Below are positions 21,642 through 38,746 of a DNA stretch of 38,746 nt, one piece after another; within the stretch, counting starts at the first letter, position 1, and each line of letters begins with the position of its first letter. This DNA is from a virus (taxonomy: Duplodnaviria > Heunggongvirae > Uroviricota > Caudoviricetes): the IMG/VR virus record IMGVR_UViG_2648501400_000020, positions 1-38,746 of that record; one strand, written 5' to 3'. Under the pieces are notes generated by a model. It was not told where the DNA came from and made no database searches. It saw nothing but the letters and a program-made list of their open reading frames with translations. A program made the position numbers and the translations under genes.

Positions 21642-22223
21642 TTAAAGCTGCATCAACCTTTCCACCAGTTTATCTCTGCGAACAACAAACCAACCATTGG
21701 CTCTCGCCAGTTCCAGCCATGACTCAAGGGAAATAACAATATCATCATCCCGTAACTGAATTGTGGAAACAGTGACACCGCCTCGCTGATAACAGAGAAC
21801 TCGCGTGTCGTAACTTTTCTGGCATGAAACTGGCGCTGACGGATCCTTTTGTCTGAAATAGCAGTCTTCCAGCTTTTCGAACACATCCCACGCCTGATCG
21901 GTTTCGAGCATTTTGGCATGACGGGCTGCTCCGCGTTCTGTCCAGAGGATGAGGGAGCGGGCTTTCGGGGAAATTTGTAACCCTCTTAAAGATGGTTGCA
22001 AATTTTGTGAGTAGTTTAAAGCTACCCGCAAATTTTTCAGGGCATCGCCAGCCACTTTGAAAAAATGCTTTCCTTCAATAAAGCGCTCAGCATTTCTGGC
22101 GTAGTTATTTTGAATGTTCTTAACTTCAGCACCGTACAACTGCGCCAAAAGTTCGGTGGTAATAACAGGAATCTGGTTATGGGTGATCGGGGAGAGAGTT
22201 TCAACAGAAATTTGAGTTGTCAT
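21642..22223 (-). CDS. ORF6N-domain protein (Rha/antirepressor-like regulator) inserted between Q and lysis genes
   Basis: N-terminal segment VITTELLAQLYGAEVKNIQNNYARNAERFIEGKHFFKV resembles the ORF6N/KilA-N-type DNA-binding domain of phage antirepressors. Confidence 0.5.
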   Translation of the reverse strand: MTTQISVETLSPITHNQIPVITTELLAQLYGAEVKNIQNNYARNAERFIEGKHFFKVAGDALKNLRVALNYSQNLQPSLRGLQISPKARSLILWTERGAARHAKMLETDQAWDVFEKLEDCYFRQKDPSAPVSCQKSYDTRVLCYQRGGVTVSTIQLRDDDIVISLESWLELARANGWFVVRRDKLVERLMQL

Positions 22224-22496
22224 AATGACGCCCTCTGGTGGTTTCTAAACCATCACCACCGTCAGGTTCCTAATCATCGGGTGGTGAGACGTACAGGGTT
22301 AGGAACTACCGGGAAACCAACCGGCGAGCTTTTCAGCTCCCCCATACGCCCCACCATAATTCAGATGTGCGCGTGCATACGACAATAAAAAACACGCTCG
22401 CGGCGTGTGTCTGTCGCGGTCTCTATCCGGGGTTCCTAATCCCGACGCCAGATTTTGCTGGCGCGTGAGGAATATAGCCCCGGATAACAGATTGAG

Positions 22497-24495: not shown

Positions 24496-24651
24496 TTACT
24501 TCTCAGATTCGTAGGCTACGAAGACAGCGACCTCCATCTGGCCGGTTCGGATTCGTACCTCGCAGAGGTCTTTCCTCGTTACCAGTGCCGTCACTATGAC
24601 GGTTAAACAGATGGCGATCAGGGCGATTAACATCGCCTTTTGCTGCTTCAT
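24496..24651 (-). CDS. hok: Hok/Gef-family type I toxin (51 aa); below the ORF-track length cutoff
   Basis: My translation: MKQQKAMLIALIAICLTVIVTALVTRKDLCEVRIRTGQMEVAVFVAYESEK; AAGGAG Shine-Dalgarno; short upstream ORF ends overlapping the start codon. Confidence 0.85.
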   Translation of the reverse strand: MKQQKAMLIALIAICLTVIVTALVTRKDLCEVRIRTGQMEVAVFVAYESEK

Positions 24652-24909
24652 AGCCTGCTTCTCCTTGACCTTTCGGTCCGTAAGAGGCTAATCTCTATGT
24701 GTCGCATAGATATGGCCTCAGATTAATGTTAAGCGTCTTGCCGGACGCGTAATGTTAACTGGGGCTTTTCTCTATCTGCCTTTTGGTGTTCATGCCTGAG
24801 ACAGATAGCCTCAAGCACCCACAGTCATTCTACTTAACTAAGATTTCCCTGCAAACCGTTTTTGTCCGGCACAGTAAATATCCAACTAAACCAATAGCGT
24901 TCGCTGTAT

Positions 24910-26663: not shown

Positions 26664-27425
26664 TCACTTTTCCGACACAATACGGCTGGAGGAATCGAAA
26701 ATATGTCGAACAATATCCCGGTGCTTGTTCAGCTCCCGCAGCGCGGCGCAGACTCGCTCCCACTTCTGGACATGATTTTTCGCCCGACGCAGTTCGCGGT
26801 TTGCCATATGCAGCGATGGTAAAACCAGGTCATCCGCTCGCGTTTCAGTAAACGATGGCAGCGACTGCACAATGTCCGCCACCGTTTCTGTTTTAATATC
26901 TTCCTGTGTTGCAGCCTCCTGTACTGGTAACGCAACACCTGCGGGCTGAGGAAAGGCCTTACCATCAGTTTCCGCTACCGATGCTGCTTTCGGCTCTGCT
27001 GGTAAATTATCGCCTGGTATGCAGTAACGAAATTTACCGCCCTGATTTACGCGAATCAGACGACCTTTGCTGATTGCCATTGCCAGCGTTGAAGCCACTT
27101 TGCGTGATGTGGTACCAAACAATGTAGCCAGCTCATCAGCCGTTTGTGGTCCGCGTTGTTCAATCGTCGCGGTTAAATCGCACTCTGAGATTTTCGCGAC
27201 TGTTGCCGTGGTAGTTTCTTCCGGCAGTTCTGCCTGCGCTGGCTGTTCCTGCTGAACGTTGTTATCAGCCACACGCCAGGTGTACGCGGTTTTATCAACA
27301 AAACCAGCTTTTTTCAGTTCCCACAGCTCGTTCAGCACTTCTTCACGACTGATATCAAGTCGCGCAGCAAGTTCTACCGACGTGGCTTTTCCCATTGCTT
27401 TCAGTGCGTCAAAAACAGTCTCCAT
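26664..27425 (-). CDS. DUF1627-like winged-helix protein (start taken at ATG 27425 with GGGAGGA Shine-Dalgarno)
   Basis: N-terminal segment [34 protein letters not shown] resembles a winged-helix DNA-binding domain; follows DnaC-like gene. Confidence 0.5.
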
Positions 27426-27447: not shown

Positions 27448-28194
27448 TCACTTCGCAATTCCTGGCTGGACGACATTCGGACGCCAGCTCTCCCAGTTAA
27501 AATTCACCCATCGCCCGCCGTTCATGGTCATGCGATCCATAATCCTCTCGCCGAGCAATGTTTTCATGGCCTCATAGTTCAGGTTTGTCAGCATCCCCAC
27601 GCTGCGCATCGACGCTGTCCGGCGATCAACAATCTGGTGCAGCACCACCTGCTCGTTTTTTGTCTCGCGCTGAATGCCAATTTCATCAAGAACCAGCAGA
27701 TCCACTTCGCACAGTTCCCGCAAAAATTTTTCGCCTGACTGCCCGTCGTCATAGCTGGCGTGCAGGGCGCTCATAACATCAGCCACGGTAACCACAATCA
27801 CTGTCTGACCGTCTTTCAGCAGGCGATTCCCGATAGCTGCCGCTAAGTGATTCTTCCCGGTACCAGGTTTTCCGCTGAACGCAAAATTTGTACACCCGGT
27901 CATCAGTTCATCGGCGATGGATTTCGCCTGGCTTAACGCGTATCGCTGGCCGTCGTTCTGCACCTGGTAATTCGCAAACGAGCATTTACGGTGCAACGGC
28001 TGGATGCCTGAGCGATTCAGAATTTTTTCCACCCGCAACTGGCGATTCAGGCGGTTGATCTCCTCGCTACGTTTCTGGCCTTCAGCAAGTTGCCACTCGC
28101 GCCACTCCGCTACCGTTCTGAATGGGGCGGTTACATGTGGTGGGGTCAGTCTGCGGATACGCTCCAGAACGCCGCCTGTCGCAATATTTTTCAT
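27448..28194 (-). CDS. DnaC-like replicative helicase loader (IstB-type AAA+ ATPase)
   Basis: Walker [16 protein letters not shown] and Walker B-like LLVLDEIG; 248 aa, directly downstream of O-like initiator. Confidence 0.8.
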
Positions 28195-28200
28195 GGTCTG

Positions 28201-28989
28201 TTACCCCCTGAAGCCTGGCGGGATCGCACTATCCGGCAACGAGACGGTGTTAACCTGTCGGAGCAACGTCTCAGGCCGAACACCTTTCGGTGCGAACAAG
28301 CCCTGGTATTCATTGGCGATGCTGTGTCGAATCACCTGCTCAGGTGTAAAACCCTGCTGACGGAATTTTTCCAGTTCCCGTATCGCCCCGTTAGCGCCCT
28401 GCTCCGTTCGAATCGGTTTTCGCAATGCCTGTCTGAACCGGACCCACTCATGCCAGAGTGTTTCCGGCAACCAATCGGGCAGCTCAATAGCCTCCGGCTC
28501 GAATTTTTTAGACGCTCGTTTTTGGCGAGGGGGATTTAGGGGGAGATCAGTATTTATATCTTCCTCTTCCTCTTCCTCTGGTAACGCTTTTTGATCCGTT
28601 TGTGTAACGCTGCCAGCGTTATCTTTTCGTTTCAGTTCGCGTATTTTTGTAACTCGCTCGTTTGTAACCGCCCGTTTTTTAGAGCTTTTTCCGTTATGAC
28701 GTTCAAAGTTAGGTAGAGAAAGCCCACCGTCATTTTCGACCAGCCATCCAACCTGAATTAACGCATCAGCAAAACCAGCCATAAAAGTGATGCGGTCTAT
28801 TGCACTTTTTGTAACGCCGCGAGCGTTACAATCTGCATTACCGTCTATCATTTGTTGATCCGCCCATGCCCAGAAGCGAATAACCTTCCCTAATGCGGCA
28901 TCTGGATCAATATTCAGAATCTCAGCAAGCCTGAATATTTCCGGCTTATCCGGCGTAATAACCTCGAGCTTTATCCAGTTTGAAGCCAT
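28201..28989 (-). CDS. Replication initiator / replisome organiser (lambda O-like position)
   Basis: 262 aa with acidic EEEEEED linker; three palindromic iteron-like repeats lie in and just upstream of the gene. Confidence 0.6.
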   Translation of the reverse strand: MASNWIKLEVITPDKPEIFRLAEILNIDPDAALGKVIRFWAWADQQMIDGNADCNARGVTKSAIDRITFMAGFADALIQVGWLVENDGGLSLPNFERHNGKSSKKRAVTNERVTKIRELKRKDNAGSVTQTDQKALPEEEEEEDINTDLPLNPPRQKRASKKFEPEAIELPDWLPETLWHEWVRFRQALRKPIRTEQGANGAIRELEKFRQQGFTPEQVIRHSIANEYQGLFAPKGVRPETLLRQVNTVSLPDSAIPPGFRG

Positions 28990-29022
28990 TTGTTTTCACC
29001 TTGTAACGCTCGCAGCGTTACA
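28603..29022. repeat. Three copies of a 19-bp palindrome GTAACGC-N5-GCGTTAC (28604-28622 imperfect, 28811-28829, 29003-29021), candidate origin iterons
   Basis: Read directly from sequence; spacing about 200 bp; extra GTAAC half-sites at 28581-28668. Confidence 0.55.
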
Positions 29023-29066
29023 TTTAACTGATACCGAACAAAACAATCCGGCACGATTAATTTCAA

Positions 29067-29489
29067 TCAATGCACTACGACAGAATCGCCGGGCGACCCA
29101 CCACCGCTGAAATGTGCTTTCCGGTAAACGGCCTGGACTGCATCATCATGCGCATCAATTGCCGTACTCAACGCTTCCTGCGCCGCCAGTAATGCACGGC
29201 GTTCCAGGGTATCGAAGATGCAGAGTCGGTGACGCAGCTCGCGCGGAAGAATTGCCAGAACCGCAGGGATCAGTTTCTGAATTTTTTCCCTTTGCGCTTT
29301 CGTTTCACCTTTCAACCAACGGTGATAGATATTCTGCTGATTGTTCCAGTCCTTGCCTAGTACAAGGGGCAATTCGCCGCCCCCCTGGCGCAGATATTCT
29401 TCAGTAATTGCGTTAGCGACCCACGCCTGCCCTTTTTCGGCTGCCAGGGCTAACAACACTGATTCGATGTGCTCATGCCTGATTTTCAT
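29067..29489 (-). CDS. cII-position protein, YdaT-like (Rac prophage type)
   Basis: 140 aa, translationally coupled (ATGA) to the cro-like gene, upstream of replication genes. Confidence 0.55.
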   Translation of the reverse strand: MKIRHEHIESVLLALAAEKGQAWVANAITEEYLRQGGGELPLVLGKDWNNQQNIYHRWLKGETKAQREKIQKLIPAVLAILPRELRHRLCIFDTLERRALLAAQEALSTAIDAHDDAVQAVYRKAHFSGGGSPGDSVVVH

Positions 29490-29728
29490 GAATCAACCGC
29501 TCCTATGCTGTTTTCGCTATGCTTACCGTCTGGGGGGAATACATCGTCAAGTCCACAATGAGCGCCAAGCCGATTAAGGGTAGAAACAATTTTTCTGCAC
29601 TCCTCTAGTCCAGGGGTACGAAAATTTGCTTCGTAATTTGCCAGTCGGCTTTGTATCCACCCTAACTGAACAGCAAGTTGTCTTTGAGACAGCCCAAGCT
29701 GTTTTCGATATGTTGAAATTTTGTTCAT
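29486..29728 (-). CDS. Cro-like HTH transcriptional regulator (YdaS-like)
   Basis: 80 aa with HTH motif LGLSQRQLAVQLGWIQSRLANYE; divergent from repressor gene; GGAGG Shine-Dalgarno. Confidence 0.65.
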   Translation of the reverse strand: MNKISTYRKQLGLSQRQLAVQLGWIQSRLANYEANFRTPGLEECRKIVSTLNRLGAHCGLDDVFPPDGKHSENSIGAVDS

Positions 29729-29824
29729 TGAAAACCTCCAATGACAATTTTAAACACATCTTGTGTTATATGGTCAAGCTGTTTTGTGTTTTATGTAAAT
29801 CACGATTCGTGATACAAGGATGCA
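29729..29824. promoter_or_regulatory. Divergent promoter/operator region between cro-like and repressor genes
   Basis: Perfect 15-bp palindrome ATCACGATTCGTGAT (29799-29813); TTGTGTT motifs at 29761 and 29785; candidate rightward promoter -35 TTGACC / -10 TTTAAA on the minus strand. Confidence 0.55.
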
Positions 29825-30244
29825 ATGGAAAAAGAAAACGAAAAAATTGCCGCTAGTAGGCTCAATGACAAAATTGCAATGCGTCTTAAAGAGCGCAGGC
29901 AGAAGCTTGGTTTATCTCAAGGAAAACTTGCTGAAATCTGCGGATGGACGCAATCGCGTATAGGTAACTATGAGGCGGGCAGCAGAAATGTTGGAGTGCA
30001 TGACGCTGTCGTATTGGGAAAGGCACTTGGCATATCTCCTCCTGAGCTCCTCTTTGGAGAACAGGAATCTTCTGAATTGTGGTTAAATGAATCCCAACGA
30101 AAACTTCTTGAGTTGTTTAACCAGCTACCGGGCTCAGAACAACAACGAATGATTGAGCTATTTGAAGTCCGGCTAAAAGAAATCGATGAGTATGTAGAAA
30201 AATATTTGAGAGGCAGGCTTAAAGATAATCCCCCACCGGAGTAA
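29825..30244 (+). CDS. Prophage repressor, HTH XRE-type without peptidase domain (RacR-like)
   Basis: 139 aa with HTH LGLSQGKLAEICGWTQSRIGNYE; divergent from cro-like gene; followed by a strong terminator. Confidence 0.75.
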   Translation: MEKENEKIAASRLNDKIAMRLKERRQKLGLSQGKLAEICGWTQSRIGNYEAGSRNVGVHDAVVLGKALGISPPELLFGEQESSELWLNESQRKLLELFNQLPGSEQQRMIELFEVRLKEIDEYVEKYLRGRLKDNPPPE

Positions 30245-30274: not shown

Positions 30275-30299
30275 AGCCCGCTATCAGCGGGCTTTTTTT
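30275..30299 (+). terminator. Rho-independent terminator after repressor gene
   Basis: agcccgc-tatca-gcgggct hairpin followed by TTTTTTT. Confidence 0.7.
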
Positions 30300-30328
30300 G
30301 TACCATCATCATATGACACCCACCACAA

Positions 30329-30370
30329 AACACATTTCGTGTTGACACAAGAAAACGCATTGTGTTTAAT
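30329..30370 (+). promoter_or_regulatory. Early-left promoter (pL-like): -35 TTGACA (30342-30347), 17-bp spacer, -10 TTTAAT (30365-30370), overlapped by two inverted repeats
   Basis: Consensus -35 with canonical spacing; palindromes AACAC-N5-GTGTT (30329-30343) and ACACAA-N9-TTGTGT (30345-30365) look like operators. Confidence 0.55.
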
Positions 30371-30703: not shown

Positions 30704-31111
30704 ACCATTTATTGGATTAATTCAATATTCTTGCTGTAGGGGTATAGCCGAGGCCACCAAAGCCCGGAGGTGGTGAAATAAAACCGGGCACAACACGAAG
30801 GCGCATTTCCGGTATCCATAAAGAGTCGGTCTTGTCTGTTAAATTTAAATGGTGGGAGTGCGCCTCCGGTTGTAAATAACGACATTGCTATGTGTAGTCT
30901 TTGGCGGCATCAGTTCTACTCCGTGGCTGCCCTGCCGCCCCTTTTTAAAGTGAATTTTGTGATGCGGTGAATGCGGCTAAGCGCACGCGGCACAGTTAAA
31001 AGCATCAGTGTTATGGGTGGATTATCCGGCGTTAATTGTTAACTGGTTAACGTCACCTGGAGGCACCAGGCACCGCATCGACAAAATTCATTTGTAAAAA
31101 TGGAGATAATT

Positions 31112-31333
31112 ATGATTGCTCATCACTTCGGAACTGATGAAATACCACGTCAGTGTGTGACCCCTGGCGATTATGTTCTTCATGAAGGTCGGACATATAT
31201 CGCCTCGGCAAACAATATTAAAAAGCGAAAACTTTATATTCGTAGCCTGACTACAAAAACATGCATTTCTGACTGCATGATTAGAGTCTTCCTCGGTCGT
31301 GATGGTTTACCTGTAAAGGCGGAGTCATGGTAA
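31112..31333 (+). CDS. KilR-like small protein (candidate host cell-division inhibitor)
   Basis: 73 aa from ATG 31112 with GGAG Shine-Dalgarno; position and size match the kil gene of Rac-type prophages. Confidence 0.5.
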
Positions 31334-31951: not shown

Positions 31952-34900
31952 ATGAGCACCGATAAACAAGTTTACCCACTGTATTACGAAGCAAAAAATG
32001 ACAAAGTAAGAAAACGTCTCGGTATTAAAGGCGGTTTCTACTGGGCTGAAGCGAAAAAATTATCCATTGCCATCTCCCGTGGTGCTGTTGCGATTGACGA
32101 TGCTGGCTACGATGAAGATGACTTTAAAAAACCTGTTCGCGTCAACTTGCCCGTTGTTGATGACCTTCCACCAGAAGGCGTATTTGATACGGAATTCTGC
32201 AACCGTTACGAAAAAGGCGGGGAAGATGGCATCACAATGGTATTTATCGCGCCCTCATCCTCTGCGCAGGACAAACCAGCCAGCACTGACAATACCAATG
32301 TTAATGGCGAAGACATGACGGAGATTGAGGAGAATATGCTACTCCCGATTTCCGGTCAGGAGCTGCCCATTCGCTGGCTTGCTCAACACGGCAGCGAAAA
32401 ACCGGTAACGCACGTTTCACGCGACGGACTACAGGCATTACACATTGCACGAGCTGAAGAACTACCAGCTGTTACTGCCCTGGCTGTTTCCCACAAAACC
32501 AGCCTGCTCGACCCGTTGGAAATTCGCGATCTCCACAAACTGGTGCGTGATACTGACAGAGTTTTCCCTAATCCAGGCAATTCAAGCCTGGGGCTGATGA
32601 CTGCTTTTTTCGAAGCATACCTGGACGCAGACTACACCGATCGCGGTCTGCTGACAAAAGAGTGGATGAAAGGAAATCGTGTTTCACGCATCACGCGCAC
32701 GGCTTCCGGCGCTAATGCTGGCGGCGGGAACCTCACCGATCGCGGCGAAGGTTTCGTTCACGATCTGACGTCACTGGCGCGCGACGTAGCCACTGGCGTA
32801 CTGGCTCGTTCAATGGACGTGGACATTTATAACCTTCATCCGGCACACGCTAAACGTGTCGAGGAAATTATCGCTGAAAATAAACCGCCCTTTTCTGTTT
32901 TCCGCGACAAATTCATCACCATGCCTGGCGGGCTGGATTATTCCCGCGCCATCGTGGTTGCGTCCGTAAAAGAAGCACCAATTGGGATCGAGGTTATCCC
33001 CGCACACGTCACTGAATATCTTAACAAAGTACTGACTGAAACTGATCATGCCACCCCTGATCCAGAAATCGTGGATATTGCCTGCGGTCGTTCCTCTGCC
33101 CCGATGCCGCAGCGTGTAACAGAAGAAGAAAAACAGGATGATGAAGAAAAACTGCAACCATCTTGCGCAATGGCAGATGAACAGGCAACGGCTGAAACAG
33201 TGGAACCGGATGCAACTGAACATCATCAGGACACGCAGCCGCTGGATGCTCAGTCACAGGTAAATTCTGTTGATGCGAAATATCAGAAACTGCGGGCAGA
33301 ACTCTATGAAGCCCGGAAAAACATTCCGCCCAAAAATCCTGTCGATGCAGACAAATTACTGGCTGCCTCTCGCGGAGAATTTGTTGAAGGGATTAGCGAC
33401 CCGAATGATCCGAAATGGGTTAAGGGGATCCAGACCCGCGATTCTGTGTACCAGAATCAGCCAGAAACGGAACAGAACGACCCAAATACGCAACAAAACG
33501 AGCCAGAAACGAAACAGCCTGAGCCAGTAGTGCAACAACAGGAAACGGAGAAAGTTTGCACCGCCTGCGGTAAGGCTGGCGGCGGCAACTGTCCTGACTG
33601 TGGCGCGGTGATGGGCGACGCAACGTATCAGAAAACCTTTAATGAAGAAAATCAGAATGAATATCAGGAAAAAGGTCTGGAGGAAATGGAAGGTGCTGAA
33701 CATCCGCACAAGGAGAACGCTGGCAGCAATCCGCATTGCGATTGCAGTGATGAAGCTGGTGAAACGACAGCACCTGTAGTAACTGAAATCATGTGGCCGT
33801 CATATTTCGAGCCTGGCCGCTATGAAAACCTCCCGAACGAGGTTTATCACTCCGCCAACGGAATAAGCAGCACAATGCTGAAGGATGCCCGCATCAGCCT
33901 GATGTATTACCACGGACGGCACATTGCCGGAACTATTCCGGGCGAGGAAAGTGATGCATTGCTGCGTGGGCGGATTATTCACAGCTATGTTCTGGAAACG
34001 GATAAATTCGCTGATGAGTATGCCATCCCGGTACCGGTTCCTGAATATGTGGTTACTACTTCTAACGAACTGATCGCCATCATTAAAAAACACAATGCCA
34101 GTCTGCCAGCACTGATGACACCAGAGCAGATGAAAGAGTGGATCGAAAGCTACAACAGCACTCTTATACAGCCACTGTCGGTAAGTGCCGGGGCCGAAGA
34201 AACAGGCATCCTTTACGGTTCGCTTCCGGAGGAATTCCGGCGTATTCCTGAGGGGGAAAAACACACAGCATCAGCAATGAAAGCCTGTATTAAAGAATAC
34301 AACGCAAGCCTCCCTCCTCTGCTGAAAGCCAGTGGAACACGAGAGCAGCTCCTGGAGCAAATTGAAACTGTAGATCCAGAACTGGCAAAAAAAGAACGTG
34401 CTAAATCTTTGCCTTACAACATCAGAGGCACAAAAGAGCAATTAACCGAAATCGCCCGGAAAATTCGCCCGGAACTGGTAACACTGGAGGACTGGCAAAA
34501 ACGCCAGCAAGAAGAAAACGCCGGGAAAACGTTTATCAGTCCGGATATGTATGAACAGGCAAAAAATATTCACGCAGCACTGCAAAACAATACTGATGCA
34601 GCAAGGCTACTCAACCACCCGGATCGCAAATCTGAAATCAGCTATTTCGGGTTTGATGAAGAAACCGGGCTGGAAATCAGGGTCCGTCCTGATATCGAAA
34701 TCCGGCTGCCATACGAAAGCATTTGCGCCGACGTGAAGTCAGTCAGCCTCGGTTATGTGCGACAGGAACGACTGAAAGATCGCCTGCACCGTGAAATTAT
34801 TGAACGTGATTATCACCTCAGCGCAGCAATGTATTGCGATGTGGCAAACCTGGACAAATTTTTCTGGATCTTCGTCAACAAAGATGCTGGCTATCACTGG

Positions 34901-35080
34901 GTGGCCGTCGTGGAAGCCTCGCAGGAACTCCTGGAACTTGGTCGACAGGAATATCGCCGGACACTACGACAGATAAACGAAGCTCTGGAGACAAACAACT
35001 GGCCAGCACCGATTACCGAAAGTTATACCGACGAATTAAACGACTTTGATCTTCGTCGTCTTGAAGCACTGAGCATCTGA
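31952..35080 (+). CDS. recE: RecE-like exonuclease VIII (PD-(D/E)XK nuclease C-terminal domain)
   Basis: 1042 aa; C-terminal RVRPD...CADVKSV...YHLSAAMY motif set (D at 34691); position upstream of annealing protein and int; internal CxxC-N9-CxxC at 33557-33601. Confidence 0.7.
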
Positions 35081-36207: not shown

Positions 36208-36402
36208 ATGCGGTATGAAAAAGTCAAACCATGTCCGTTTTGTGGTTGTCCATCAGTAACGGTGAAAGCCATTTCAGGATATTACCGCGCAAAGTGTAAC
36301 GGATGCGAATCCCGAACCGGCTATAGTGGAAGTGAAAAAGAAGCACTCGAAAGATGGAATAAACGAACTACTGGAAATAATAATGGAGGTGTTCATGTAT
36401 AA
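36208..36402 (+). CDS. Lar-like restriction alleviation protein (zinc finger)
   Basis: 64 aa from ATG 36208; CPFCGC...CNGC motif typical of the Lar family. Confidence 0.5.
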   Translation: MRYEKVKPCPFCGCPSVTVKAISGYYRAKCNGCESRTGYSGSEKEALERWNKRTTGNNNGGVHV

Positions 36403-36583
36403 AATTACTGCCACTATTGAAAAGGAAGGTGGCACTCCTACTAACTGGACAAGATATTCAAAATCTAAATTAACGAAATCAGAATGCGAAAAAATGCTCT
36501 CAGGGAAAAAAGAAGCAGGCGTTTCCAGAGAGCAGAAAGTAAAGCTGATAAATTTTAATTGCGAGAAACTTCTGTCCTCGTGA
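36395..36583 (+). CDS. Small hypothetical protein (YdaC-like position)
   Basis: 62 aa from ATG 36395 with GGAGG Shine-Dalgarno; overlaps end of Lar-like gene. Confidence 0.3.
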   Translation: MYKITATIEKEGGTPTNWTRYSKSKLTKSECEKMLSGKKEAGVSREQKVKLINFNCEKLLSS

Positions 36584-36689
36584 GTTGCATTATATACAAA
36601 TTAGAACTTCATAGCTGATTATTAAAAATCAACCACATCCGCCAGTATTCTGTATATTTACTGGCGGTCATATCGTAAGAGGTATGGCA

Positions 36690-38078: not shown

Positions 38079-38144
38079 GAAATTCGAGTAAATTTCGGGG
38101 AATTTCGGGAAGACGTTTGCAACTGATTGATTTTAAATACAATT

Positions 38145-38247
38145 AAAAAAAGACCGAATACGATTCCTGTATTCGGTCCAGGGAAATGGCTCTTGGGAGA
38201 GAGCCGTGCGCTAAAAGTTGGCATTAATGCAGGCTTAGTTGCCTTGC
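38145..38247 (-). ncRNA. sdsR: SdsR (RyeB)-like small RNA with intrinsic terminator
   Basis: Minus-strand transcript beginning GCAAGGCAACUAAGCCUGCAUUAAUGCC and ending in hairpin GACCGAAUACAGGAAUCGUAUUCGGUC plus U-run; lies between a yebY-like gene and the prophage as in the enterobacterial ryeA/ryeB locus. Confidence 0.5.
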
Positions 38248-38334
38248 TCTTTAAGAATAGATGACGACGCCAGGTTTTCCAGTTTGCGTGCAAAATGGTC
38301 AATAAAAAGCGTGGGGGTCATCAGCTTAAATGTT

Positions 38335-38404: not shown

Positions 38405-38746
38405 TTAACAGAGTTTTTCAGCTCGCTCTATAAACGGTGCCAGACTCATTTTTTCGCCGGGATTGTTAGGATCATCAATCTGAATCACCGAAATGAGTTG
38501 GGCTTTAGTCTTCCCACTGGCAACTTCCTTTTGTGCGATATCGTTTAAAGGATACTGCACGAGGGTACTTGGGTTGATGACATACAAAGCATTACCTGGT
38601 CGGCAAGCCAGCATCACCTCTTCGCGATTAAACGCCCATTTGTCTTTACCCACTTCAAAACGGCTGACGGTAATCACCTGCGGTGCCGCCAGCGCAGCTG
38701 CAGAACTGGTGAGTAACAGAAACGCCAGAATACTTTTTTTCATCAT
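38405..38746 (-). CDS. Host-type secreted protein with signal peptide (YebY-like)
   Basis: 113 aa, N-terminal [20 protein letters not shown] signal peptide; lies outside the prophage beyond the sRNA locus. Confidence 0.5.

Follow-up and report, generated by a model that had tools for sequence, protein, structure and literature searches.

The cro-ydaT pair and its immunity region

The window analyzed here is a stretch of 38,746 nt, positions 1 to 38,746 of IMG/VR virus record IMGVR_UViG_2648501400_000020 (Duplodnaviria; Heunggongvirae; Uroviricota; Caudoviricetes), and holds what looks like an intact E. coli prophage of Rac-like content (RecET/RalR/KilR), inserted beside yebY. Two genes fill positions 29067 to 29728 exactly (Table 1), and an earlier note on this DNA was correct in placing a cro-like HTH gene and a coupled 140-aa gene there. 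The genes overlap by 4 nt (ATGA), with the cro stop codon TGA at 29488-29486 and the ydaT ATG at 29489-29487, and translation of ydaT is probably coupled to that of cro. The same note had likened the pair to ydaS/ydaT of the Rac prophage, a resemblance that holds for the second gene and fails for the first.

The 140-aa protein matches PF06254 (YdaT_toxin) with an E value of 5.4e-11 and 43.2 bits, against a curated cutoff of 21, and also matches phrog_163, "CII-like transcriptional activator" (E 5e-36). PGAP names the product "toxin YdaT family protein". The alignment to 3C4R spans residues 1-140 (E 4.8e-07) and that to 8BT1 residues 2-140 (E 3.3e-06), and in these sequence alignments the full-length match takes in both the POU-like HTH domain and the long C-terminal helix alpha-6 of the solved members. 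The protein is 94% identical to YdaT from the Rac prophage of E. coli K-12, and the recognition helices are the same. Work on Rac YdaT has shown that H56 and R57 contact DNA, that W58 serves the fold and that L107 and A110 mediate tetramerization; the H56A/R57A mutant loses DNA binding (PMC11879457). R57, W58 and L107 are invariant in a four-sequence alignment, and H56 and A110 are identical to Rac. Judged by its sequence, the protein is a true YdaT, orthologous to that of Rac.

The 80-aa product of the cro-position gene matches Pfam HTH_3 (E 6.7e-10) and otherwise only the generic HTH_19 and HTH_31 families. It has no match to PF15943 (YdaS) in a Pfam library against which Rac YdaS itself scores 2.6e-31, and BLASTP returned no alignment with either Rac YdaS or Qin DicC. 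The protein thus falls outside the YdaS family (PF15943/COG4197). It does match a "lambda repressor-like protein" in the PDB (28tn_A, E 8e-15). The same type of cro gene adjoins ydaT in 23 loci, with 8 synonymous and 2 non-synonymous differences.

The divergent repressor gene encodes a protein with an HTH_3 domain (E 4.7e-13) and no peptidase (S24-type) domain among its Pfam matches, and RecA-mediated autocleavage is therefore unlikely. It matches the NCBIfam DicA subfamily NF007257 over residues 15-133 (E 1.4e-15), with 57.2 bits against a curated cutoff of 101, and is 29% identical to K-12 DicA over 129 aa (E 2e-15). By sequence, the repressor is therefore a distant DicA relative that lies below the NCBI threshold for a family member. 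No similarity to RacR was found. A motif search for the 15-bp palindrome AWCACR-N3-YGTGWT found copies without mismatch at 29753, 29799 and 30329 only, and a copy with 1 mismatch at 30352. This recurrence near cro and at the leftward promoter speaks for the part of the earlier note's proposal that placed the pair under repressor control, and the palindromes are putative operators on grounds of symmetry. Downstream of the P_L candidate, from which they would be transcribed, lie a DUF1391 gene, DicF, a KilR-like gene, RecE/T and RalR.

Table 1. Genes and candidate regulatory features of the prophage region, in window coordinates.
Feature	Position	Strand	Description
DnaC/IstB-like loader	27448-28194	-	96% identical to Rac YdaV
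O-like replication initiator	28201-28989	-	C-terminal 124 aa 81% identical to Rac YdaU
Second, weaker box-like site	29053-29070		minus strand TTGATT-GAAATT-AATCGT; spans ydaT stop codon; 2 mismatches
ydaT	29067-29489	-	140 aa; predicted CII-like transcriptional activator (PF06254)
YdaT box	29479-29496		minus strand TTGATT-CATGAA-AATCAG; spans cro stop and ydaT start
cro-position gene	29486-29728	-	80-aa XRE/HTH_3 protein; neither YdaS nor DicC homolog
Predicted -10 hexamer	29518-29523	+	TATGCT; P_RE-like, putatively YdaT-dependent
O_R-like operator set	29753-29813		cro-repressor intergenic; centers 23 bp apart; assigned from sequence symmetry; also direct repeat D4
O1	29753-29767		AACACATCTTGTGTT
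P_R candidate	29777-29772 (TTGACC)	-	17-nt spacer, TTTAAA; overlapped by O_R-like set
O2, weak	29776-29790		AAGCTGTTTTGTGTT
O3	29799-29813		ATCACGATTCGTGAT
Prophage repressor, DicA family	29825-30244	+	139 aa; N-terminal HTH_3, helical C-terminal part
Intrinsic terminator 3' of repressor gene	30275-30300	+	8-bp stem, 6 GC pairs, then T run
O_L-like operator pair	30329-30370	+	AACACATTTCGTGTT (30329-30343), AAAACGCATTGTGTT (30352-30366)
P_L candidate	30342-30347 (TTGACA)	+	17-nt spacer, TTTAAT; overlaps O_L-like pair
RalA	36401-36579	-	Rfam RF02694, 223.8 bits
RalA sRNA promoter	36594-36589 (TATAAT)	-	one side of distal box
Distal YdaT box	36615-36632		CTGATTATTAAAAATCAA; between RalA sRNA and predicted xis-int promoters; 1 mismatch
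Predicted xis-int promoter	36653-36658 (TATATT)	+	offset 21 from distal box

Spread and modularity of ydaT

The best-matching E. coli genomes carry a 1.4-kb region around the pair at 99.6-99.9% identity. Of 5426 E. coli genomes, 152 have at least 80% of this region and 1510 have part of it. For comparison we used 172 related loci (92 Rac-type and 80 CP-933P-type). IMG/VR gave useful diversity, and a scan of GTDB representative genomes gave only 10 loci. The related loci carry 55 alleles of ydaT, 54 of them intact, with 685 synonymous and 317 non-synonymous codon differences. Because the region recurs in E. coli genomes, and because ydaT alleles are nearly all intact and differ mostly at synonymous positions, the pair does not represent chance open reading frames. 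The YdaT of the window is also found in phage-deposited records such as Rac-SA53 and vB_EcoS-673R7, and most of the closest phage records annotate its gene as "activator protein cII".

Near-identical ydaT genes are joined to at least five unrelated cro genes and at least six downstream modules in the related loci, and ydaT is therefore unlike one half of a co-adapted pair of toxin and partner. The window itself illustrates such an exchange. Its homology to Rac starts exactly at the YdaT box that spans the ydaT start codon, and the locus is, by sequence, a mosaic of a Rac-type ydaT cassette and a different immunity pair, whose junction is the published YdaT-binding box. Window and K-12 Rac share the contents of the leftward arm (KilR, RecE, RecT and RalR/RalA) as well as YdaV and the C-terminal part of YdaU. 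In contrast, YdaS and RacR are unrelated to the window's cro product and repressor, the operators are different, and Rac has a 22-nt gap between ydaS and ydaT where the window has an overlap. Further differences concern xis/int, the N-terminal region of the O-like protein and the site of attachment (ttcA in Rac, the yebY side in the window), and Rac is a 23-kb remnant, whereas the window prophage appears complete. The replication genes (27448-28989) match phrog_2509 (E 1.3e-89), and the replication region of the rightward operon contains palindromic iteron-like repeats.

YdaT boxes and predicted promoters

The box across the ydaT start codon is common to Rac (ATGATTCATGAAAATCAA) and the window (TTGATTCATGAAAATCAG), where it departs by 1 mismatch from TTGATT-N6-AATCAA. 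It is found at -7 of the ydaT ATG in all 92 Rac-type loci and in 72 of the 80 CP-933P-type loci (at most 1 mismatch). Experiments have established this YdaT-binding site in Rac (PMC11879457) and in CP-933P (PMC9986795): the box was footprinted, and a reverse promoter was activated up to 29-fold (PMC11879457, PMC9986795, PMC8630535). On the antisense side, a TAnnnT hexamer follows the box at an offset of 21 or 22 in 7/7 unrelated families of cro-3' sequence and in 8/8 of the commonest CP-933P-type flank variants, which mostly represent further unrelated families; the background frequency of TAnnnT is 0.0092 per position. The box center falls at about -42 of the start predicted from the hexamer. 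Box and hexamer have the geometry expected of a CII/P_RE-type activator site, and the predicted transcript would cross cro in antisense and continue into the repressor gene.

A consensus sigma-70 scan called no promoter on the plus strand in the 29518 region, nor did it call the P_L candidate at 30342. It was likewise negative at the distal box. Null results of this kind are expected for promoters that are activator-dependent or have non-consensus -10 elements; the promoter assignments therefore rest on comparative spacing. In Rac, the YdaT-activated promoter PracR4 was placed about 190 bp from the box rather than next to it (Wons et al.). The window has no PracR4 equivalent, because its cro gene is unrelated.

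A further box lies about 58 nt upstream of xis, between the RalA promoter and a predicted, divergent xis-int promoter (Table 1). The same box is present in K-12 Rac, upstream of xisR and adjoining ralA, and the homology between window and Rac stops 2 nt after it. This distal box is kept in 58 of 64 Rac-type loci with sufficient upstream DNA; it occurs with two xis/int families and also in a Serratia locus. In 3/3 unrelated sequences, Serratia included, TAnnnT stands at an offset of 21 or 22 toward xis. A search of 1.41 Mb of related loci for boxes with at most 1 mismatch turned up 83 at the ydaT start, 58 upstream of xis-int and none elsewhere. CP-933P-type loci, only 17 of which had at least 7 kb of upstream DNA, yielded no distal box within that mismatch limit. 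Since the distal box sits inside a block homologous between window and Rac, independent support comes from the position of the junction, the Serratia locus and the spacing.

These observations raise the tentative idea, which we consider somewhat less than an even bet, that YdaT of the Rac type controls a small set of phage promoters other than P_RE, a regulon not reported before, with one box at about -42 of the divergent, -35-less xis-int and RalA promoters, in K-12 Rac as well. It would follow that in Rac the start activated by YdaT is adjacent to the box, with class-II geometry, and not at PracR4, 190 bp away. If the idea is true, a regulator of lysogeny establishment turns on the repressor, the integrase and an antitoxin RNA together, and the distal box could help to account for the roughly 100-fold rise of xisR and intR upon RacR depletion. 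The papers on YdaT that we consulted make no mention of a box between the xis-int and RalA promoters, and overexpressing Rac YdaT failed to trigger excision of Rac. Unlike lambda P_I, the predicted promoter on the side of xis would give a transcript that includes xis along with int.

Other box-like sequences fared less well. The weaker site at the ydaT stop codon occurs only with one type of replication module (41 loci), is absent with at least six other downstream modules and has a -10 hexamer at offset 21 or 22 on neither side. Lying 426 bp from the first box, it might let a YdaT tetramer loop out its own gene. A perfect palindrome, CTGATT-N6-AATCAG at 27042-27059 in the DUF1627 gene, was considered as a P_aQ-like third target and rejected, because neither of its flanks has a -10 hexamer at the conserved distance; it recurs in Rac ydaW because of coding homology. 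The YdaT-like site at 29787-29802 (inverted repeat I3, between cro and the repressor gene) has 3 mismatches and was dropped. Phi80-type CII phages (mEp237, HK639, HK225 and 4A7) were unsuitable as an independent test set, for they have no TTGATT-N6-AATCAA box at the cII start; their CII (~180 aa) is only ~35% identical to the N-terminal domain of YdaT.

A lysis-lysogeny switch or an addiction module

Besides Rac, three known systems bear on what the pair does. The paaR2-ydaS-ydaT locus of CP-933P/Sp12 in E. coli O157:H7 has the same order of repressor, cro analogue and YdaT. Its YdaT recognizes the same TTGATT-N6-AATCAA box at the ydaS/ydaT junction and turns on the otherwise silent promoter P_RE933P (PMC9986795, PMC8630535), and its crystal structure (8BT1) aligns with window YdaT over the full length. 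The two proteins are only ~33% identical, however, and CP-933P YdaT is reported to be non-toxic (PMC8630535) and to have no action on rcsA. The CP-933P repressor operon also carries the paaA2-parE2 toxin-antitoxin pair, whereas the repressor gene of the window is monocistronic, with a terminator after it. For the window, DNA binding, promoter activity, activation and toxicity are argued from orthology with Rac and CP-933P.

With cI-cro-cII of lambda, the window shares gene order and logic, three operators ~23 bp apart, an activator site overlapping the start of the activator's own gene, a predicted -35-less activated promoter directed antisense through cro into the repressor gene, and a second, candidate site at the int region. 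The systems differ in that CII reads a direct repeat, whereas the YdaT site is an inverted repeat for a 222-symmetric tetramer (PMC9986795). In addition, the predicted int-side promoter of the window lies upstream of xis and not inside it, and the lack of a peptidase domain among the Pfam matches of the window repressor is a further departure from lambda. The third system, dicA-dicC-ydfX/dicF-dicB of Qin in K-12, has the full-length repressor homolog DicA, a DUF1391 gene and DicF RNA downstream of the repressor gene, and a YdfX that keeps a remnant of the YdaT recognition helix; dicA is listed among essential prophage-repressor genes (PMC5917428). Qin differs from the window in being a decayed remnant with a truncated ydaT-like gene, in its DicC, to which the window's cro product bears no likeness, in the low identity of the repressors, and in carrying the division inhibitor DicB where the window has a KilR-like gene.

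Based on these comparisons, we favor the view that the two genes are rightward early regulators, one Cro-like and one CII-like (YdaT), in the immunity region of a Rac-like prophage, rather than a dedicated addiction module, and give this a probability of about 0.8. The DicA-family repressor would bind the 15-bp palindromic operators, 23 bp apart, between cro and its own gene and at the leftward promoter, thereby silencing two operons, cro-ydaT-O-P and DicF/KilR/RecET. In this scheme, the 80-aa protein would act as the Cro analogue and YdaT as the CII analogue. A YdaT tetramer on TTGATT-N6-AATCAA across its own start codon, centered ~42 bp upstream of a -35-less promoter, would activate a transcript that crosses cro in antisense and continues into the repressor gene, equivalent to that from lambda P_RE. 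YdaT probably also works at the second box between RalA and xis-int, in the manner of lambda P_I. High levels of YdaT are expected to be toxic through host targets such as rcsA, as a side effect and not as the purpose of the module. The locus is ordinary and for the most part already explained, a switch of a familiar type whose parts are newly combined.

The earlier note had proposed instead that repressor, cro and ydaT form an addiction-like or growth-arrest system, in which killing or arresting de-repressed cells is the selected role and lysis-lysogeny control is secondary. Toxicity upon derepression is plausible by orthology to Rac YdaT. Experiments describe filamentation and a drop in viability of about 10^4-fold upon Rac YdaT overexpression, in part via rcsA (PMC11879457, PMC11014345), with killing or filamentation of E. 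coli even in cells that lack Rac. Two groups ascribe the lethality of racR silencing to ydaS/ydaT, and ydaT has stayed intact even in cryptic prophages (54/55 alleles). The reported toxicity of YdaS does not carry over, however, because the window partner is not YdaS. Moreover, ydaT recombines freely with unrelated cro, repressor and replication modules, its box and promoter geometry suit a CII-type activator, and YdaT has no match in PADLOC, which returned generic HTH matches only. The CP-933P homolog, which reads the same box, is not toxic (PMC8630535), and lambda CII is toxic on overproduction, as Rac YdaT is, yet is not deemed a toxin (Jobling, PMC5917428). Essentiality of the repressor calls for no special module in an apparently complete prophage, since lysis genes, DicF and the KilR-like gene stand under the same operators, and several genes besides ydaT would also cause toxicity on derepression. 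Because those operators guard the leftward DicF/KilR-like operon and the prophage looks intact, the repressor would be "essential" whatever cro and ydaT do. An addiction function thus appears improbable, on the modularity of ydaT, the CII/P_RE-type geometry and the apparent integrity of the prophage. The case for a regulator over addiction has been made before, by Jobling (PMC5917428) and Jurenas et al. (PMC8630535).

Somewhat less probable still is that YdaT is kept mainly as a host-reprogramming factor, acting through rcsA on capsule, motility, biofilm and division genes (lysogenic conversion), with phage targets secondary. Rac YdaT is reported to bind the promoter of the host gene rcsA, to activate it, and to alter motility and biofilm formation; the recognition helix of window YdaT is identical, and ydaT is conserved in cryptic prophages. 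Against this, YdaT, which the prophage repressor keeps repressed, is undetectable in normal growth, phage sites alone supply conserved boxes of high quality in 2.4 Mb of related loci (the rcsA site of the host is not part of the window), and rcsA is not a target of the CP-933P homolog. That the genes form a classical type II toxin-antitoxin pair, in which the HTH protein would be the antitoxin and YdaT the toxin, is suggested by the Pfam and PGAP names, by the small overlapping operon that begins with an HTH gene and by weak sub-threshold NCBIfam matches of the 80-aa protein to HipB/MqsA-type antitoxins, but is highly improbable, as those matches are generic HTH hits far under their cutoffs, YdaT is neither enzyme nor pore but a tetramer that binds a defined operator through POU-like HTH domains (PDB 8BT1, PMC9986795), the upstream partner comes from at least five unrelated families where a cognate co-inherited pair with a non-regulatory toxin target would be expected, and experiments found no toxin-antitoxin behavior (Christensen-Dalsgaard 2010, as relayed in PMC5917428; Jurenas 2021, PMC8630535).

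The main value of this analysis is corrective. The protein still goes by "toxin YdaT" in Pfam and PGAP, and publications are divided over whether it is a toxin or a regulator. In the window and about 170 relatives, ydaT is a self-contained cassette, made up of the gene and its own operator at the start codon; it recombines freely with unrelated immunity and replication modules and keeps the CII/P_RE-type promoter geometry throughout the relatives examined. Together, these properties favor the reading of YdaT as a regulator. A secondary lead is the YdaT box that is conserved between the promoters of xis-int and RalA. For pairs of this kind, the locus is a warning that annotation alone is insufficient to name them addiction modules.

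Gene content and kinship of the two-gene unit

The interval 29067-29728 holds exactly two ORFs, both on the minus strand, which confirms the two-gene observation of an earlier note: the ORFs (80 and 140 aa) occupy the interval exactly and overlap by ATGA, a type of overlap that commonly accompanies translational coupling. Farther downstream on the same strand, Pfam identified genes for an O-like replication initiator, a DnaC/IstB-like ATPase, a DUF1627 protein and a DUF977 protein. The region is 99.6-99.9% identical to its best-matching E. coli chromosomes, in which PGAP annotates the same three genes. At least 80% of the 1.4-kb query was present in 152 of 5426 complete genomes, and part of it in 1510. 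PHROGs classes the 140-aa protein as a CII-like activator, and YdaT is also found in records deposited as phages, most of the closest of which annotate its gene as cII. YdaT is not represented among the PADLOC models.

Features of the immunity region and leftward arm
Feature	Position	Strand	Description
cro-like gene	29486-29728	-	80 aa; Pfam HTH_3, E 6.7e-10
ydaT	29067-29489	-	140 aa; PF06254 'YdaT_toxin', E 5.4e-11, exceeds curated cutoff
Repressor gene	29825-30244	+ (divergent to cro/ydaT)	139 aa; HTH_3
Candidate -10 hexamer	29518-29523	antisense to cro	TATGCT
Intergenic (pseudo)palindromes	29753-67, 29776-90, 29799-813		15 bp each
Repressor terminator	30275-30300
Outlying operator-motif copies	30329-43, 30352-66		0 and 1 mismatch, respectively
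DicF antisense RNA	30889-30940	+	Rfam, 60.9 bits; leftward operon
KilR-like ORF	31100-31333	+	77 aa; position annotated kilR in close relatives; no Pfam match
RalA sRNA	36401-36579	-	Rfam, 223.8 bits
RalA-side hexamer	36589-36594		TATAAT
Distal YdaT box	36615-36632		CTGATTATTAAAAATCAA; one mismatch
xis-side hexamer, window type	36653-36658		TATATT

The earlier note had likened these genes to the ydaS/ydaT pair of Rac, and alignment upheld the YdaT half of that resemblance. Identity to the K-12 Rac counterpart is 94% for the 140-aa protein (YdaT), 96% for the DnaC-like protein (YdaV) and 81% for the C-terminal 124 aa of the O-like protein (YdaU). However, the cro-like protein did not align with Rac YdaS and does not match PF15943, a model that Rac YdaS, run as a control against that Pfam library, matches at 2.6e-31. 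Nor did the repressor align meaningfully with RacR. Therefore, the "pair" is a true YdaT attached to an immunity pair of other specificity. Judged by alignment to DicA of the Qin prophage (29% identity over 129 aa, E 2e-15), the repressor is a distant full-length relative of that protein, scoring 57 bits on the NCBIfam DicA model, below the cutoff of 101. Comparison with Qin DicC ruled out DicC as the identity of the cro-like protein.

In K-12 Qin (L097), ydfX (1847-2137) encodes a 96-aa protein that aligns to the recognition-helix region of YdaT (38% identity over 29 aa, E 9e-07). Qin dicA-dicC-ydfX therefore has the same repressor/cro/YdaT-type layout, with a decayed YdaT.

A recombining ydaT cassette and its predicted promoter

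DNA homology between the window and Rac starts exactly at TGATTCATGAAAATCA and stops just past the ydaT stop codon. TGATTCATGAAAATCA is the experimentally footprinted YdaT box, which reads ATGATTCATGAAAATCAA in Rac (PMC11879457) and has the consensus TTGATT-N6-AATCAA in the O157:H7 prophage CP-933P (PMC9986795). The window copy, TTGATT-CATGAA-AATCAG, carries one mismatch to this consensus. We compared loci encoding a Rac-type or related YdaT (92 loci) or a CP-933P-type YdaT (80 loci). The box starts 7 nt ahead of the ydaT ATG in all 92 of the former and, allowing one mismatch, in 72 of the latter. Near-identical ydaT genes (94-99%) have one of at least five unrelated cro types on their upstream side. 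The CP-933P-YdaS-like type accounts for 30 loci and the window type for 23; about 18 loci have a second PF15943-type cro, 11-12 have Rac YdaS and about 7 have a DicC-like gene. At least six different modules follow downstream. The gene is under purifying selection, with 54 of 55 alleles intact and codon differences that are synonymous in 685 cases versus 317 non-synonymous. A lone gene such as ydaT, equipped with an operator of its own and freely recombined at both flanks, behaves like a regulatory cassette rather than half of a co-adapted toxin pair.

Two side observations concern this cassette. A second box-like site, TTGATT-GAAATT-AATCGT (29053-29070), lies across the ydaT stop codon, at a distance of 426 bp from the box at the start codon; it was found only with this replication-module type and lacks promoter geometry. 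With its two DNA-binding faces, the YdaT tetramer could conceivably loop the DNA between the two sites, and chance may also account for the second one. E. coli-type ydaT also occurs on contigs labeled 'Candidatus Nanosynbacter' (L011, a MAG), 'Collinsella' (L015, a MAG) and Actinobacillus phage vB_Apl-pPE4 (PP818812.1, where a window-type cro of 95% DNA identity accompanies it); these labels probably reflect mis-binning or a wrongly assigned host.

A TAnnnT hexamer starts 21 or 22 nt past the start-codon box, on the antisense strand toward the repressor gene, in seven of seven unrelated cro-3' families. The same spacing holds in all eight of the commonest flank variants of CP-933P-type loci, which for the most part represent additional unrelated families. 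With a TAnnnT background of 0.0092 per position in the window, chance does not explain this conservation. If the hexamer spans -12 to -7, the box would be centered at about -41.5 or -42.5, which is class-II activator geometry for a predicted promoter lacking a -35 element. A promoter scan found no sigma-70 consensus promoter at this putative analogue of lambda P_RE, consistent with the absent -35. The predicted geometry agrees with the promoter between ydaS and ydaT of CP-933P, which is silent without YdaT (PMC8630535), and with the 29-fold box-dependent activation in Rac. It disagrees with the assignment by the Rac authors of YdaT-dependent activity to PracR4, 190 bp from the box; their reporter construct held both PracR4 and the box-adjacent position. 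PracR4 has no equivalent in the window, because its cro is unrelated. Sequence comparison suggests that the YdaT-dependent start in Rac adjoins the box rather than lying at PracR4, about 190 bp off. The K-12 ydaS-ydaT spacer (L002 9640-9695) has TATGAT 21 nt past the box on the antisense strand. In the window, the predicted transcript would run antisense to cro and extend to the repressor gene, which carries a Shine-Dalgarno sequence of its own and has a terminator after it.

Putative repressor operators and the predicted toxicity of derepression

The cro-repressor intergenic region contains three (pseudo)palindromes with centers 23 bp apart. The consensus from the two good copies, AWCACR-N3-YGTGWT, recurs elsewhere without mismatch at only one site and with one mismatch at another, again 23 bp apart. 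These two copies overlap TTGACA-17-TTTAAT directly past the repressor terminator, and 30329-30370 is the predicted P_L/O_L analogue, facing the DUF1391 gene, DicF and the KilR-like gene, then YdaE-like, RecE/RecT, RalR, xis and int genes. DicF and the KilR-like ORF would add to derepression toxicity independently of cro/ydaT. The other arm has uninterrupted ORFs for portal, major capsid, sheath-like, tape measure, baseplate J, holin and Q-like proteins, and int is flanked by the host sRNAs RyeA/SdsR and yebY. Loss of the repressor would thus release several division inhibitors and probably the full lytic program, so its essentiality is over-determined and not diagnostic of a cro/ydaT addiction function.

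The earlier note had proposed such an addiction or growth-arrest module, a reading that the evidence supports only in part. The toxicity of overexpressed Rac YdaT is well documented (PMC11879457, PMC11014345), and the window protein is probably toxic as well, because its recognition helix is identical. However, free recombination of ydaT, the CII-type geometry and the over-determined repressor argue against that function, as do the PHROGs class, the cII annotations in phage records and the absence from PADLOC. The CP-933P homolog is not toxic (PMC8630535), and lambda CII is also toxic on overexpression (PMC5917428). We therefore favor, at a probability of roughly 0.8, a Cro/CII-type decision module of a heteroimmune Rac-like prophage. 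Of the closest known systems, Rac racR-ydaS-ydaT shares its ydaT cassette and boxes but differs in immunity genes; CP-933P paaR2-ydaS-ydaT shares the box and P_RE logic, with a YdaT of solved structure that is 33% identical; lambda cI-cro-cII shares the logic, with no sequence similarity reported; and Qin dicA-dicC-ydfX has DicF and a repressor related to this one, with part of the YdaT recognition helix surviving in YdfX.

Several other elements were observed. The host sRNA pair SraC/RyeA and SdsR/RyeB, then yebY (38141-38285 and 38405-38746), directly past int, places the prophage end and attachment site at about 38.0-38.1 kb. Palindromes TGTAACGC-N-GCGTTACA of 19-22 nt (28603-28621, 28810-28831, 29001-29022; also 28647-28679), inside and just upstream of the O-like gene, are probably origin iterons or initiator autoregulatory sites. 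C4 antisense RNA, a1/b1 targets and isrK (Rfam; 22277-22477 and 21642-22223, minus strand) lie upstream of an ORF6N-domain gene, a set that resembles the P1-type immI/antirepressor module and might provide an induction route; the Pfam matches of the DicA-like repressor include no peptidase domain. A sok antisense RNA (24649-24820, minus strand; Rfam, 106.7 bits) points to a type I toxin-antitoxin locus of the hok/sok kind within the prophage. The RecE homolog (31952-35080, plus strand) has 1042 aa versus 866 in K-12 Rac, with Exonuc_VIII and PDDEXK-like domains at its two ends and a long, acidic, low-complexity middle.

A distal YdaT box between RalA and xis-int

Only one other YdaT box with at most one mismatch occurs in the window, CTGATTATTAAAAATCAA, which is shared by K-12 Rac, where it lies upstream of xisR (L002 2504-2521). 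Window/Rac homology through the ralR-DUF1187 block stops 2 nt past the box, even though the xis/int genes and attachment sites differ. Across 1.41 Mb of Rac-type loci, boxes of this quality are confined to the ydaT start (83) and this distal position (58), the latter in 58 of 64 loci with enough upstream DNA. On its xis side, TAnnnT recurs at offset 21-22 in three unrelated sequences: the window type, Rac (TAACAT) and a Serratia aquatilis prophage (TAAGAT), whose box has two mismatches. The RalA-side hexamer, at offset 21 (TACAAT in Rac), belongs to the RalA antitoxin sRNA, whose 5' end was mapped in Rac by primer extension, 36 nt from the box. In the window, the -10-like hexamers of both sides are thus 21 nt from the box.

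The distal box is thus a candidate analogue of lambda P_I, the CII-activated integrase promoter. RacR depletion raises xisR and intR roughly 100-fold (PMC11014345). Against a P_I analogue, the predicted transcript would take in xis, overexpressed YdaT did not induce excision of Rac, and CP-933P-type loci lack the site. The box also sits in a block shared by descent. The YdaT papers that we consulted mention neither this box nor integrase or xisR in relation to YdaT binding. The conserved box between xis-int and RalA is the one new lead.
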